The notes under the pieces were generated by a model, which saw only the letters and a program-made list of their open reading frames with translations, was not told the DNA's origin and made no database searches. 5,921 bases of DNA from Escherichia coli (GTDB lineage Bacteria; Pseudomonadota; Gammaproteobacteria; Enterobacterales; Enterobacteriaceae): NCBI RefSeq assembly GCF_003334815.1, contig NZ_QOWO01000069.1. One strand, given 5' to 3'. Both the position numbers and the translations under genes were made by a program. This document shows, in pieces, positions 1 to 5,921 of this stretch (positions are counted from its first letter, which is position 1; every line of letters begins with the position of its first letter).

Positions 1-315
1 GACCCGCCGCAACGACGAAGAGCGCGTGCGCGAAACGGCGTTGCCCCTCACATCCCGGCGGCCTTTTGCCGGGATGCAGGGAGCGCAGGCCACGGCGCGA
101 CAGAGGCGGCGCGACCGGAACGGTCGCTGCAAGCCAGGGGTTTCGCGTCAGGGATGGAAGCCCGTCAGGGCGGAGACAGCTTCGCTGGCTCCGTTCACGA
201 CAGCCCGCCCCGTCAGGGGGACGCCCGGAAAAGGCATAAGCAGGAGAACAACAAAACAGACAGTAATCAGGACAGCAGTAATCAGAGTCAGAACAGGAGG
301 AAAAAGAGAATAATC
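1..315. repeat. Copy A of a ~290-bp direct repeat; candidate Frpo/ssi-type single-stranded-DNA promoter element (begins at the window edge, so may be truncated)
   Basis: Positions 51..270 are identical base for base to 5682..5901 (220 bp); 1..50 matches 5631..5681 with a few substitutions and one indel. Internal dyad symmetry: 51-59/68-76 (9-bp stem), 111-117/121-127 (7-bp stem), 29-36/140-147, and imperfect long-range pairing 37-51/212-225. Purine-rich 3' tail. Functional call is inference from position in an IncF leading region. Confidence 0.6.
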
Positions 316-570: not shown

Positions 571-732
571 CTACTTACCGCCGGATTCGTAAGCCATTGT
601 TGCCGTAACTTCCCTGTATCCGTCCTTCAGCCGGACTTCGCACAGGCGATTCCGGGTCAGGAGTGTGAATATCAACAACGTGCAGCACACGATTAATACG
701 CACCAGATAAGGGCGTTTCCCGGTAGTTTCAT
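571..732 (-). CDS. hok: Hok-family type I toxin (small membrane-depolarising peptide), 53 aa
   Basis: Hand translation of minus strand from ATG at 732 to TAG at 571-573 gives [53 protein letters not shown], which closely resembles R1 Hok (hydrophobic N-terminus, conserved LCE and MAYESG motifs). RBS AAGGAGGAG about 6 nt upstream. Absent from the ORF track because it is under 60 aa. The symbol flmA/srnB is equally possible depending on the plasmid. Confidence 0.85.
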
Positions 733-790
733 GGTTTACTCCTCCTTGCAATTTGCACGGTAAGAGGCCATACTGACGTGGATGAGACAT
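575..790 (-). CDS. mok: Mok-like overlapping reading frame (translation of hok is coupled to it)
   Basis: 71-aa ORF in a different frame that starts upstream of hok (ATG at 790) and overlaps almost all of hok, ending 4 nt before the hok stop; this is the characteristic mok/hok arrangement. Confidence 0.6.
746..774 (+). promoter_or_regulatory. Candidate sok promoter: -35 TTGCAA (746-751), 17-nt spacer, -10 CATACT (769-774)
   Basis: Plus-strand sigma70-like hexamers opposite the mok translation initiation region, at the position of the sok promoter in R1 hok/sok. The -10 is weak (4 of 6 match). Confidence 0.4.
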
Positions 791-845
791 ACAGTGGGCC
801 TCGTGGGTTAATGAAAATTAACTACGGGGCTTTCTGCTTTCTGCC
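780..845 (+). ncRNA. sok: Sok-like antisense RNA (antitoxin of the hok/sok system); ends approximate
   Basis: Inferred from the hok/mok architecture: an antisense RNA of about 64 nt starting just after the candidate promoter and complementary to the hok mRNA leader / mok start. Coordinates estimated, not measured. Confidence 0.4.
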
Positions 846-900
846 ACACGACAGGATAACAAACCACCTTCACGTCATGAGGCAGAAAGCCTCAAGCGCC

Positions 901-940
901 GGGCACATCATAGCCCATATACCTGCACACTGACCACACT
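901..940 (-). promoter_or_regulatory. Candidate hok/mok promoter; -10 TATGAT at 907-912 on the minus strand, transcript 5' end near 900
   Basis: Minus-strand sequence from 900 downward (GGCGCTTGAGGCTTTCTGCCTCATGACGTGAAGGTGG...) matches the 5' end of the R1 hok mRNA as I recall it. TATGAT lies 6 nt upstream of that 5' end. The -35 is not clear. Confidence 0.45.
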
Positions 941-1146
941 CACTTTCCCTGAAAATAATCAGGTCGTTCAGCCAGTTCCCGGGCAATCAGTTCATCCGCA
1001 AACAGTGGTGCATGCCTGTTGATACGTTTCTCCAGATTCCGCCGTCGTACCGCAGCCTTACGTTCTTCGCTCCAGCGGCGCACCGGGCGGTCAGAAATAA
1101 AATCCAGACAGACCGCATACCCTGCTCCGGCAACCCAGCGTGACAT
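940..1146 (-). CDS. Hypothetical small protein (68 aa from ATG at 1146; the track ORF extends to a GTG at 1287 and would overlap the psiA 3' end)
   Basis: Open frame between psiA and the hok promoter. C-terminal part is charged and helix-like (RRWSEERKAAVRRRNLEKRINRH...). No convincing Shine-Dalgarno before ATG 1146. Start and reality both uncertain. Confidence 0.3.
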   Translation of the reverse strand: MSRWVAGAGYAVCLDFISDRPVRRWSEERKAAVRRRNLEKRINRHAPLFADELIARELAERPDYFQGK

Positions 1147-1250
1147 AACGGATGCCGGAGCAGGCTGCCCCGCCTCCACCACTTCTGAAACCAGTTCATG
1201 CTCGCCAGGACAGGGATAAGGCAGTTTCCAGCGCAGTGAGTAACGCCACT

Positions 1251-1970
1251 TCACGCCGCCTCCCGGAGTTTGTTCGGCACCATCCACCGCTCCATCTCAC
1301 GGACGGCATGACCGGCCTCCCTTGCCGCCATACCAGCCTCTGCGGTGACCTGCCAGAATGGCATATCCTGCCACTGCCAGCGTTCCATCCCGGCCAGTGA
1401 CGGAAAACGCTCGCCCCACTGCCAGAACAGGGTTTCCAGGTCATGCTCTGCCACCCGGTCACTCCAGCGTGCATGCCAGCTTCCGACTGTTTCCGGTGAA
1501 TGGAACGCCAGTTCGATTTCTGCCTGAGCAACCAGCGCCTGGTACGCACGGGTTTTCTGCTCTGCCTCCCTCGCCTGCTGACGGCTGTACTTCTGCATGA
1601 CCAGTGCGGATTTATGGCGACTGCGTTCCCTGACACGGAACCGCACTGACGGGAACAACTGCTCTGCTGCATCGCAGGGAAGAGGAAGAAGGCAGACCTC
1701 GCCCTGAGTTTCAATCAGCACATCGACGGCATACAGCCACTGAGAACGGTTGCCGCGCAGTTCTTCTGCGGTCAGGGACGGCATGAAAAATCGCAGGTCA
1801 GACAGCGAAATCCTGCGGCTTCCGTTCAGACAGCGGAAAAACGCCCCCGCATACGGATATTCCGCCAGCGTGTTCCCCTGATGGCGGCGTTTTTCCGTCT
1901 CCGCCACCGCCTGCCATGCGGCCTGTTGCTCTGTGCTGAGGGGAACCAGTGCCTGTGAACGTGCGCTCAT
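1251..1970 (-). CDS. psiA: Plasmid SOS inhibition protein PsiA, 239 aa
   Basis: 239-aa ORF immediately downstream of and translationally coupled to psiB (ATGA overlap at 1967-1970); length and sequence match PsiA of F-like plasmids as recalled. RBS GGAAGGAGG about 6 nt upstream. Confidence 0.9.
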
Positions 1971-2455: not shown

Positions 2456-4423
2456 TCAGGCGGCATCGGCCTGGTTGTCACGGTATTCCGTGGTTTCCGT
2501 CTCTGCCTGTGGACGTGGTGTACACATCCAGCCAGGCACCCAGCGGTTGTCTTTCATGTGGAGCTCTGCATGTTCAGCCGCATCGCCTTTCTTCATTTTC
2601 TCCGCGTCCCGCGCAGCACCGGACAGTCCTGCATCATTCAGGGCATCGATAATCTGCGGCTTTTTCAGATGTCCGAAGAAGTTTGCTTTTGTCGGCTGCC
2701 ACCAGTCACGCATGTGGAACCCGATAGCGGTTTCCAGCGAGTCAAGCGGACTGCGTGACGTGTGACCATGCTCGCGAGTCTGGACACCATCCACGGAACA
2801 GGCTGTACAGAAAACCATCAGACTCATCAGAGTCTGTCCGTTAAGCGTGAAGAATGTGGTGAAATCTTTCTGCCAGCCCTCCGGCAACAGAGCCTCCAGA
2901 CGGGCTTTTTCCTGCATCAGACTCAGCCACGCCTGACCTCTCTTTCCACCGGGAGCATCACTTGTCAGCCTTCTGTGATTCTCTTCAATCTGTATCCTGA
3001 ACGGGTGGAGAGTGGTATTGCAGTAATCAAAAACACAACAGCACAATCGCCAGACCATCAGTGCCACTGTTTTTTCAGGTTGATGTATCAGCGCCGCCTG
3101 GACTGCCAGCGTGCGCTCTGAGGACATTTTCGTCAGCAACGGCAGGCTGATTTCCTCCACTGACGCTTTCTCCTGCACCTGTTCCGTGCGGTCAGCGTCG
3201 TCAGCCACGTCATCCTCACTGCGCAACTGCACACCACGCTGGACACACACGTTGCCATAACGCCAGGACACCACCACTCCACCTCCGGCACGCATCTCCG
3301 GCGTCCACGCTCTGACCTTCGCCATGCAGCGCATCAGCTTCATTTCTGCTTCCAGCAGGTCAGATTCCTCACACTGGTTTTCCAGCGCGTCGTAACGCGT
3401 CATCAGTTCGTTCAGGCGTTCTTCTTCCGCCTCCGTCAGCACCGCTTCCGGCTCCGGCAGACAGCGGTATGTTCCGGCATCCTCACGGCACTCACCGACA
3501 GGCTCCATGCGCCCGGCGCACCATTCCCAGCCTTCGGCTTCCCGAAGGTGTTCAGCAACAGCCTGGAGTTTTTCCAGCAGGGCGGCATTGAGCGCCACGC
3601 AGTCCACATAGCCACCTTCGTCGTCGCTGAACAAATCGGTGCGCAGTTCATCTGGCGAGAAGGCATCAGCCCCCACAAAGCGGAATTTACTGTTCCCCGC
3701 CACCGCCACTTCACTTTCGGTCACCAGACGACGAATGGTCTGTACTTCCGGTTTACCGCCCCATCCCGACTGACAGGCGGCTTCAAACACCTGCACCTGA
3801 CGCGCGGTGTCATTCTCCAGCGCCAGCGCCTGACAGTGTTCGGTGGTGATGCGGTCTTCTGCCAGCGCATCGAGGATGACAGGCGCAAGGTCAGCCAGTT
3901 TCAGCATTCGCTGGACATGGCGGGGTGAATAACCCAGCAAGTCACCGATTTGTGCAGGTGTTTTGCCTTCCTGCGCCATTGCGCGGAATCCGGCAATCTG
4001 TTCGGCAGGATGCATATCCCGACGATGACCGTTTTCAGTCATTGATGCGGCAGTCGCCAGCTCCTGCGGAATGACCTTCACACGGACAGGCCAGTCAGCC
4101 GGAAGGATGCCACGCTCTGCCAGCATGTTGAGTGCAGCCAGTCGGCGACCACCTGCGGCGACACCGTAACGCTCACCCGACAGGGCATGAACAACCAGAT
4201 TCTGCAACAGGCCGACGCCCTTAATGGACTCCGCCAGTTCGCTGACGGACTCTGCGGAATACGGCACAGTGCGCACATTCAGCGGTGATTTAATCAGTGA
4301 GGCCAGCGACACGCTCACTTCTTCCGTCTGCGCCAGCAGGGCAGACAGTGCAGTCTCCTGCACTTTTGACGGTTTACGGCTGGATTTACGCCCCGCTTTT
4401 ACCTTAAACTCTGTAACTGACAT
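2456..4423 (-). CDS. ParB/Srx-domain protein of the plasmid leading region (ParB-like nuclease/DNA-binding domain at N-terminus, long uncharacterised C-terminal region), 655 aa
   Basis: 655-aa ORF with ATG at 4423 and RBS AAGGGA. N-terminus carries ParB box motifs (SPLNVR around residues 46-51; GGRRLAAL at residues 91-98, resembling the GERRxRA arginine patch) and a helix-turn-helix-like segment (TPAQIGDLLGYSPRHVQRML). The C-terminal ~400 aa have no motif I recognise. A large ParB-like gene next to ssb is a hallmark of IncF/IncI leading regions. Confidence 0.85.
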   Translation of the reverse strand: MSVTEFKVKAGRKSSRKPSKVQETALSALLAQTEEVSVSLASLIKSPLNVRTVPYSAESVSELAESIKGVGLLQNLVVHALSGERYGVAAGGRRLAALNMLAERGILPADWPVRVKVIPQELATAASMTENGHRRDMHPAEQIAGFRAMAQEGKTPAQIGDLLGYSPRHVQRMLKLADLAPVILDALAEDRITTEHCQALALENDTARQVQVFEAACQSGWGGKPEVQTIRRLVTESEVAVAGNSKFRFVGADAFSPDELRTDLFSDDEGGYVDCVALNAALLEKLQAVAEHLREAEGWEWCAGRMEPVGECREDAGTYRCLPEPEAVLTEAEEERLNELMTRYDALENQCEESDLLEAEMKLMRCMAKVRAWTPEMRAGGGVVVSWRYGNVCVQRGVQLRSEDDVADDADRTEQVQEKASVEEISLPLLTKMSSERTLAVQAALIHQPEKTVALMVWRLCCCVFDYCNTTLHPFRIQIEENHRRLTSDAPGGKRGQAWLSLMQEKARLEALLPEGWQKDFTTFFTLNGQTLMSLMVFCTACSVDGVQTREHGHTSRSPLDSLETAIGFHMRDWWQPTKANFFGHLKKPQIIDALNDAGLSGAARDAEKMKKGDAAEHAELHMKDNRWVPGWMCTPRPQAETETTEYRDNQADAA

Positions 4424-4483: not shown

Positions 4484-4756
<273 letters not shown>

Positions 4757-4774: not shown

Positions 4775-5302
4775 TCAGAACGGAATGTCGTCATCGAAGT
4801 TATACGCGGGTTCAGACGGCTGCTGAGGCTCGGGCTGCGCGGCCTTACGTCCACGGCCTTTCGTTTTCGCGCCTCCTTTTTTCGGTTCCGGCTGTGGTTC
4901 CTGCTGAGGCTGACCGCTGAACTGTTGTGCCTCTTCCGGCTGAGTCTGAGCACCTGCGGCACGTCCCAGCATCTGCATGGTGCCCGTGGTCTTAACAAGA
5001 ATTTCAGTGACGTAACGGGTGATACCGTTATCTTCCCAGCTACGGGTACGGAGTTGCCCCTCGATGTAGACCTGCTCGCCCTTGTGCAGATATTCACCGG
5101 CCACTTCCGCGAGCTTGCCGAACAGCACCACGCGATGCCATTCTGTCTGCTCCCGTATCTCCCCCGTCTGTTTGTCACGCCAGCTTTCTGACGTGGCCAC
5201 CTGCAGGTTTGCCACTGCGCCCCCGTTTGGGATGTAACGGACTTCCGGATCTTTTCCCAGACGACCGACAAGAATGACCTTGTTAATGCCACGAACTGCC
5301 AT
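4775..5302 (-). CDS. ssb: Plasmid-encoded single-stranded DNA-binding protein, 175 aa
   Basis: Translation from ATG at 5302 ([48 protein letters not shown]...[19 protein letters not shown]...) has the SSB OB-fold core, a Gln/Pro-rich linker and the acidic C-terminal tail DDDIPF. Strong RBS AAGGAG 7 nt upstream. The track ORF begins 13 codons upstream (5341), but the RBS-supported ATG is at 5302. Confidence 0.92.
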
Positions 5303-5485
5303 GATGTATCTCCTTCTGTTGATGTTTTCAGCCCCCATCATCTTTTGAGTTTCGGGAGCCGCGGTTTTGACGTTTTGCGGGGACCTGCCTTTTGTTCCCT
5401 ACGGTATTCACCATCACCTTTTTGAGAACCTTCGCCGCAAGGGGCATCACTGCCACGGCCTGACGCACCTGTCCTGGGCAGAACG

Positions 5486-5521
5486 CAAAATTTTTTACCG
5501 GGTTCTGGGTAAAAAATTTTG
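5486..5521. repeat. Perfect 14-bp AT-rich inverted repeat (CAAAATTTTTTACC / GGTAAAAAATTTTG) with 8-nt spacer; candidate operator or structured regulatory site upstream of ssb
   Basis: Arms 5486-5499 and 5508-5521 are exact reverse complements; an extra C-G pair at 5484/5523. No flanking T-run on either strand, so unlikely to be an intrinsic terminator. Confidence 0.6.
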
Positions 5522-5630
5522 TGGGCTGTTCATTTACCCTGGACAGTCAGTGCGGCAGGTTGTGGCTGTATCAGCCCCCGGCGACAGGGGCTTAAACAGG
5601 TGAATGGCACCGGACACAACAACGGGCAGG

Positions 5631-5921
5631 GACCCGCCGCAACGACGTGAAGCGCGGTTTGCGAAACGGCGTTGCGCCTTACATCCCGGCGGCCTTTTGC
5701 CGGGATGCAGGGAGCGCAGGCCACGGCGCGACAGAGGCGGCGCGACCGGAACGGTCGCTGCAAGCCAGGGGTTTCGCGTCAGGGATGGAAGCCCGTCAGG
5801 GCGGAGACAGCTTCGCTGGCTCCGTTCACGACAGCCCGCCCCGTCAGGGGGACGCCCGGAAAAGGCATAAGCAGGAGAACAACAAAACAGACAGTAATCA
5901 GAGCAGCAGAAAAAAGAAGAA
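5631..5921. repeat. Copy B of the ~290-bp direct repeat; candidate Frpo/ssi-type single-stranded-DNA promoter upstream of the ssb operon (runs to the window end, so may be truncated)
   Basis: 5682..5901 is identical to 51..270; flanks diverge. Begins about 330 nt upstream (minus-strand sense) of the ssb start codon. Same internal hairpins as copy A. Confidence 0.6.

Follow-up and report, generated by a model that had tools for sequence, protein, structure and literature searches.

The window (the whole stretch analysed here, 5,921 nucleotides of Escherichia coli DNA) very probably bears, upstream of ssb, a class-1 single-stranded-DNA promoter homologous to Frpo2/ssp1b of the F plasmid, and this promoter is the 319-nt stem-loop at positions 5349-5667. 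The preliminary description of this DNA had proposed an Frpo/ssi-type promoter upstream of ssb and assigned it to the interval 5631-5921. The kind of element and the locus were right, but the coordinates fell on its flank: on the transferred strand, the interval adjoins the promoter on its 3′ side and consists of the last 37 nt of the stem, a multi-hairpin extension and a purine-rich tract, i.e., the 3′ half of a repeat unit. The features are collected in Table 1. Promoters of the Frpo type enable conjugative plasmids to express genes for SOS inhibition, ssDNA binding and anti-defence within the first minutes of entry. The one found here is a near-identical copy of F Frpo2, characterised both in vitro and in vivo, and is already known; since this type is well documented and present in thousands of plasmids, finding one more adds nothing new. 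The conserved structured extension is the only new lead, and a modest one.

Table 1. Features of the window and their coordinates
Feature	Position	Strand	Remarks
Second copy, extension and purine tract	1-286	+	Distal half of the neighbouring Frpo1-type unit
hok toxin ORF	571-732	-	Overlapped by a mok-like ORF, 575-790
sok antisense RNA	730-901		Rfam RF01794, 98 bits
psiA	1251-1970	-
psiB	1967-2404	-
ParB-like gene	2456-4423	-	655 aa
DUF905 gene	4484-4720	-
ssb	4775-5302	-	ORF; Pfam SSB; single-stranded DNA-binding protein in the CP048869.1 annotation; first of the genes downstream of the hairpin
Equivalent of the Frpo2 fragment driving acrIIA4	5300-5589	-	98.3% over 290 nt; no overlap with 5631-5921
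ssiD-homologous stretch	5332-5681	+	BLAST; full 351 nt of F ssiD (D90178), 87.9%
Long imperfect stem-loop, 319 nt	5349-5667	+	DNA fold; 121 predicted pairs; loop at ~5500-5507
A/T-rich hairpin apex	5487-5520	+	Position of a putative UP element; tip formed by AAAATTTTTTACC ... GGTAAAAAATTTT
Putative -35, TGGACA	5540-5545	+	Right (non-template) arm; pairs with TGTCC 5470-5474; 5/6 consensus
Putative -10, TGTATC	5567-5572	+	Mismatched part of the stem; 3/6 consensus; 5567 and 5570-5573 unpaired in the fold
Multi-hairpin extension	5668-5861	+	Most of 5631-5921; fold z -3.0
Main hairpins of the extension	5682-5707, 5714-5729, 5742-5758, 5803-5823, 5839-5850	+	5742-5758 is GCGACCG-GAA-CGGTCGC
Purine-rich tract, low structure	5860-5921	+	Distal end of the unit; 81% purine

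The promoter hairpin upstream of ssb

Folding of the region 5303-5921 yielded one very long imperfect stem-loop with a z-score of about -15. The stem-loop proper (5349-5667) gave -94.9 kcal/mol on the plus strand (z -10.4) and -84.3 kcal/mol on the minus strand (z -7.3), a difference of 10.6 kcal/mol. The plus strand folded better in all 39 dereplicated variants (mean -13.4 kcal/mol), and in the hairpin alignment G.T pairs outnumbered A.C oppositions (364 vs. 132). All three results, the z-scores, the behaviour of the variants and the G.T excess, favour the plus strand as the one that folds.

The interval 5631-5921 gave another picture. Strong internal dyad symmetry had been ascribed to it, but folded alone it gives only a series of small local hairpins and no long stem (-68.3 kcal/mol on the plus strand, z -3.3; minus strand z -1.8); the stem that was sought sits at 5349-5667 and shares with the interval its last 37 nt only. 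The -35/-10-like hexamers expected in such a stem were likewise not revealed by a duplex consensus scan of 5200-5921, which gave no hexamer pair and no promoter-like site, and a terminator scan of the same region returned a single terminator, as expected by chance. Some points do favour the interval: it is a repeated sequence with hairpins, ssb lies downstream of it, the ssiD homology takes in its first 51 nt, and the end of ColIb-P9 ssi3 aligns to 5706-5734. Nevertheless, it is very improbable that 5631-5921 is itself an Frpo-like hairpin promoter driving ssb, as 5349-5667 is where the long stem, the A/T-rich tip and the invariant TGTCC/TGGAC are all found, and the experimental Frpo2 fragment lies wholly outside the interval. 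Alignment to the F Frpo thus bore out the locus (ssiD at 5332-5681, 88%) and not the interval. While class-1 Frpo/ssi homology is present at the locus, within the interval it covers only 5631-5681 and 5706-5734. By the preliminary description's own standard, a stable long stem-loop and similarity to Frpo/ssi elements, 5631-5921 largely fails: it has no stable long stem, and the part of it that resembles Frpo is marginal.

For the comparison with known elements, we took the ssiD/ssi reference sequences from Supplementary file 4 and the Frpo2 construct from Supplementary file 11 of Samuel et al. 2024. Comparisons with the F plasmid were done with F′ F128, in which ssiD maps to 13651-14000 and the Frpo2 fragment to 19009-19299. 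The construct fragment is 100% identical to the F′ Frpo2; the corresponding window sequence is 98% identical to this experimental fragment, and for the whole unit the identity to F′ 19012-19584 is 95.7%. Just as F Frpo2/ssp1b (Couturier et al. 2023; Samuel et al. 2024), the window element is located upstream of ssb and forms the same long hairpin on the same strand, so that there is essentially no difference between the two hairpins. The literature-defined promoter sits between ssb and the interval 5631-5921, which begins roughly at the end of the deposited ssiD and corresponds to the sequence adjoining the cloned Frpo2 fragment (Samuel et al. 2024). RNA-polymerase-dependent transcription or priming on single-stranded DNA, abolished in the duplex, has been shown for F elements 88-98% identical to the window element (PMC9849209; PMC11541004; PMC12672017), and it is from the literature on the F element, 98-100% identical, that we take single-stranded-DNA transcription for the window hairpin. 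The transcription start sites of class 1 were mapped by 5′ RACE (PMC12672017).

The F Frpo (Frpo1, ssiD; D90178) is, like the window hairpin, a stem-loop of ~320-330 nt with the -35 and -10 in the stem. ssiD, the original Frpo, is reportedly that of Masai & Arai 1997. Elsewhere Frpo is described as a 328-nt stem-loop bearing duplex -35 and -10 boxes (PMC7690428). Of the copies in the window, the right-hand one represents the Frpo2 variant and differs from ssiD in three extra nucleotides between the putative -35 and -10, bulged in the fold; the neighbouring unit, with 1-286 as its distal half, is of the Frpo1 (ssiD) type. The same architecture is seen in ssi1-3 of ColIb-P9, reportedly the IncI1 homologues of Frpo (Bates et al. 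1999; Nasim et al. 2004). Their apical 80-96 nt are ~79% identical to window 5455-5546, as aligned with ssi2/ssi3, and the basal stem differs in sequence. The 3′ end of ssi3 matches window 5706-5734 at 97%, which means that the IncI1 definition runs into the first extension hairpins; IncI1-type units among those sampled mostly bear the alternative distal type of extension described below. The class-2 and class-3 elements ssp2 and ssp3 are also long transferred-strand hairpins upstream of leading-region operons (PMC12672017; 10.64898/2026.01.09.698686), but they have no sequence similarity to the window element.

The positions given here for the -35, the -10 and the start site are our reading of the alignment and the fold. 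The TGTCC at 5470-5474 is invariant (39/39 aligned variants), and CTGGAC is present in the F and ColIb-P9 reference elements. In the window, the putative -35 and -10 are separated by 21 nt, of which three (5547-5549) are bulged; F ssiD shows the same layout with an 18-nt spacer, no bulge, and TGTCTT following. A/T-rich DNA is limited in the hairpin to the tip, 5487-5520, and an A+T-rich UP element has been described upstream of the -35 in Frpo (Samuel et al. 2024). The experimental Frpo2 fragment, whose equivalent extends to 5589, holds exactly the apical part with the putative boxes.

On this basis, the promoter might work as follows. During conjugation, the plus strand would be the one transferred, its 5′ end on the hok side entering ahead of the rest, and 5349-5667 would fold on itself into a stem-loop of ~320 nt. 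The apical stem would thereby rebuild a duplex promoter, in which an A/T-rich tip is followed by TGGACA/TGTCC as the -35-like and by the partly mismatched TGTATC as the -10-like element; the right arm would serve as non-template and the left arm as template, and initiation would take place opposite about 5437-5441. Host sigma-70 RNA polymerase would run down the left arm and, ahead of complementary-strand synthesis, transcribe ssb, the DUF905 gene, the parB-like gene, psiB and psiA. Second-strand synthesis would flatten the hairpin and in this way switch the promoter off.

Repeat units of the leading region

The window is the leading region of an F-like conjugative plasmid. All its convincing genes lie on the minus strand, as judged from the ORF list, Pfam and the annotation of CP048869.1, and the earlier statement that the interval is upstream of ssb and that the ssb-psiB-psiA block is read from the minus strand is correct; the DUF905 gene, the parB-like gene and hok are on this strand too. 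Positions 571-901 constitute an flm/hok-sok killer system located between the two promoter units. Close relatives of the window were found in more than 5,000 plasmid records. In complete plasmids (F′ and others) the order is traM, oriT side, SLT gene, DUF932, Frpo1 unit, hok, psiA, psiB, ssb and Frpo2 unit. It is known for F that the transferred strand is the one that enters the leading region from oriT in the 5′ to 3′ direction. In F′ F128, CP048869.1 and p147, the traM/oriT side is to the left in the window orientation and the leading genes are all on the minus strand; the plus strand has this orientation and is thus the transferred strand and the template for all leading genes. The location typical of class 1, a leading region where the downstream genes are templated by the transferred strand, is the one observed here.

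Some other observations concern the genes and the public annotation of this region. A 17-nt perfect inverted repeat, TCTGGTTGTTCATGCCC / GGGCATGAACAACCAGA, is present at 432-448 and 4183-4199, 3.7 kb apart; the first arm separates the left repeat copy from hok, and the second is within the parB-like ORF; a related direct copy is found at 2439-2456. By a rough estimate, the chance expectation for such a repeat in a window of this size is ~1e-3. Three CDS in the public records are doubtful: in L139 (1201-1406 and 1474-1795), the promoter hairpin is covered by a frameshifted "single-stranded DNA-binding protein" and the plus strand of the extension by a pseudo "hypothetical protein", and the third is a "theronine dehydrogenase" overlapping the end of psiA (CP048869.1 4641-4955, corresponding to window 940-1254).

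The second copy of the repeat proved real: 30-286 and 5661-5917 are 97% identical, and 1-26 and 5631-5656 are 88% identical. As to its size, an element of ~290 bp had been described, whereas the true unit is ~600 nt long, equivalent to window 5311-5921, and is met two to four times per leading region (CP048869.1, F′ F128 and the sibling contig L141); near-identical plasmids carry it four times. On the transferred strand the unit comprises, from 5′ to 3′, the promoter hairpin, the extension of ~200 nt with its several hairpins and the purine-rich tract. Extension copies inside one plasmid are 97-98% identical. The hairpin halves of the two units differ more (about 85-90% identity) than the extension halves (97%). 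This difference presumably accounts both for the apparent repeat length of only ~290 nt and for the break of the assembly at this place.

The window is identical to a whole draft contig of 5,921 bp, QOWO01000069.1 (GCA_003334815.1), which explains why both its ends fall inside Frpo repeat units: the assembly broke in the near-identical extension copies. As the contig broke within the repeats, the left copy lacks its hairpin half. We also considered the left copy as a hairpin-deleted remnant, the start of the window being a deletion junction known elsewhere, and rejected this, because the window is a whole contig and the full hairpin is present in L141. This sibling contig, 99.97% identical across the whole window, has an Frpo1-type hairpin (91.4% identical to F ssiD, -100.6 kcal/mol) directly to the left of the 1-286 equivalent, and the intact plasmid shows four repeat units. 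Repeat-based or by-eye calls may therefore hit the flank and miss the promoter hairpin, and draft contigs tend to break right there.

In some units, the inner 275 nt of the promoter palindrome have been precisely lost between GGGA microhomologies, with GAGTTTCGGGA joined to CCCGCCGC and the extension kept. The junction corresponds to window 5356/5632 and was seen at loci L021, L037, L064, L103, L112 and L140; a junction-specific 39-mer occurs in 190 PLSDB plasmids, mostly of E. coli.

Structure and conservation of the extension

We collected ~75 copies from one-genome-per-species contigs and metagenomes and aligned 39 representatives with less than 96.5% mutual identity. Owing to the mosaic nature of the units, RNAalifold gave a fragmentary consensus for the full alignment, and the structure derived from the window (hairpin plus extension) was used instead, with the pairing partners slid by 1-3 columns as controls. 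In the 39-sequence alignment, 84.8% of the cells were paired, compared to 40-46% in the slid controls; 66 pairs had changes on both sides vs. 30-46 in the controls, these counts being uncorrected for phylogeny, and the covariation score was 0.156 vs. 0.075 at most. Since the counts are uncorrected for ancestry and the structure comes from one member, this is strong support and not proof.

The extension, a chain of short G+C-rich hairpins, does not code for protein, and its structure is under constraint. The helix of the 5742-5758 hairpin is 99.4% paired, with double compensatory changes in 12 of the 39 variants and not a single broken case; its stem was found in four versions, GCGACCG/CGGTCGC, GCCTCCG/CGGAGGC, GCATCCT/AGGATGC and GCAGCCG/CGGCTGC. 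The first extension hairpin has an entirely different sequence in the IncI1-type units and is still a hairpin. In its distal half, the extension exists in two alternative versions, freely combined with different hairpin types, so that the units are mosaic. As for the strand, the plus-strand fold of the extension is the more stable one in 38/39 variants with DNA parameters and in 34/39 with RNA parameters; for the plus strand in general, which is G-rich, composition alone could account for the better folding. G.T and A.C are equally frequent in the distal hairpins (18 vs. 20). An Rfam search of the whole window and of 5300-5921 at E <= 10 passed only sok, and the best score within 5300-5921 was 19 bits against a gathering score of 63.

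On the transferred strand, the purine-rich tract immediately follows the extension on its 3′ side and is partly built of tandem CAGTAATCAGRG-like or GAA/GAG units. Its purine content is 77-81% at 5860-5921 and 230-330, and the mean at 66 distinct homologous positions is 0.66, compared to a background of 0.48 +/- 0.07. The length of the tract varies among plasmids.

Possible roles of the extension

The extension directly follows a class-1 hairpin on its 3′ side in 86 of the 110 copies at the loci examined. The remaining copies are situated at contig ends, behind other long hairpins (z -8 to -11) or behind a precise hairpin deletion. Hairpins unrelated to Frpo class 1 precede it in L004 (a Raoultella plasmid; 5684-6231), L012 (6204-6728) and L038 (2613-3148 and 5590-6125), and one such unrelated long hairpin with its extension is located upstream of an antirestriction gene (Raoultella and metagenome plasmids). 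We rejected the idea that the extension accompanies every class of single-stranded-DNA promoter, as the class-2 (ssp2) promoter region of F (F′ 20900-21312) forms a hairpin of -111 kcal/mol and has no extension. Nor does ssi activity need it, since the deposited ssiD stops at the start of the extension. No description of the extension was found in the accessible Frpo/ssp literature, and the oligo names in the supplement of Samuel et al. 2024 give no indication whether it stayed beside the inserted Frpo2 fragment.

The extension could, with less than even probability, be a separable, strand-specific functional module of the transferred strand that goes with more than one class of promoter. It might prolong or insulate the folded active state, resisting invasion by SSB or an approaching complementary-strand polymerase, or else serve as a priming or termination signal. 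The mechanism we prefer, although it is less likely than not, is that the extension, folded in the transferred strand, would act as a structural buffer for the promoter hairpin, holding the SSB-coated single strand, or a complementary-strand polymerase coming from the later-entering side, away from the base of the stem. Such a buffer would be analogous to ssp2, which is reported to act in addition as a roadblock to complementary-strand synthesis (10.64898/2026.01.09.698686).

Other explanations have to be weighed against this one. That the interval encodes a small protein, on the plus ORF 5604-5870 or on a minus ORF equivalent to 148-348, is hardly credible: stop-free ORFs of 66-95 aa do exist on both strands, and in a related plasmid PGAP annotates the plus strand of the extension with a pseudo CDS ("hypothetical protein"), but long stop-free stretches on both strands are expected for G+C-rich DNA, the substitutions preserve hairpins and not codons, the start of the minus-strand ORF is outside the repeat, and the indel events among the extension variants (241 not a multiple of 3 vs. 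23 multiples) led us to reject a coding function. There is also a small chance that the extension is functionless, a passenger kept similar by recombination or gene conversion among promoter units. The near-identity of the copies in one plasmid, the mosaic modules with two distal types behind different hairpin types, and the fact that Frpo repeats are known recombination substrates (PMC3817090; PMC9849209) would all suit a passenger. What argues against it is that variants of only 72-76% identity keep every hairpin by means of compensatory double changes, that the 5742-5758 helix stays paired across four stem sequences, and that the extension outlasts the deletion of the promoter hairpin and is found behind unrelated hairpins.

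About as unlikely is an action at the RNA level, where the extension would be a 3′ element of the minus-sense transcript of the upstream operon, either a stabiliser or a Rho-/structure-dependent terminator, and would stop read-through polymerases from unfolding the promoter hairpin. Its hairpins are almost entirely Watson-Crick, so that RNA could fold too; in the minus-sense RNA, the counterpart of the purine tract is rich in pyrimidines, has little structure and immediately precedes the hairpins, and the similar numbers of A.C and G.T pairs in the distal hairpins agree with such a reading. However, the minus strand of the extension has no hairpin followed by a U-run that would make a terminator, it folds more weakly with both parameter sets, no Rfam family matches it, and hok has terminator-like hairpins of its own (~541-565 and 364-399) before the left extension copy. 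Less probable still is a complementary-strand priming signal, a G4-type primase site or a PriA primosome assembly site, beside the RNA-polymerase-dependent Frpo. The transferred strand does form several stable hairpins here, a conserved CTG is located directly 3′ of the 5742-5758 hairpin (GGTCG-CTG-CAAGCC), and some variants have AAGCGG just 5′ of it; these presumably resemble features of G4-type and n′-type sites. Moreover, the incoming strand has been argued to be primed repeatedly (10.64898/2026.01.09.698686). At the same time, the screen that yielded F ssiD and ssiE deposited no ssi over the extension (ssiD ends at its start, and ssiE lies elsewhere), and rifampicin abolishes early conversion downstream of ssp1a and ssp1b (10.64898/2026.01.09.698686); early conversion thus depends on RNA polymerase, which argues against an independent priming site.

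If the extension modulates for how long the promoter remains single-stranded and active, it would belong to the timing mechanism of plasmid establishment and would be worth adding to reporter and deletion constructs. A last observation concerns the distribution of the units: the contig NZ_JABBXF010000124.1, labelled Streptomyces morookaense, bears an enterobacterial Frpo unit with BLAST statistics identical to those of a Raoultella plasmid, which is probably a contamination of the assembly.
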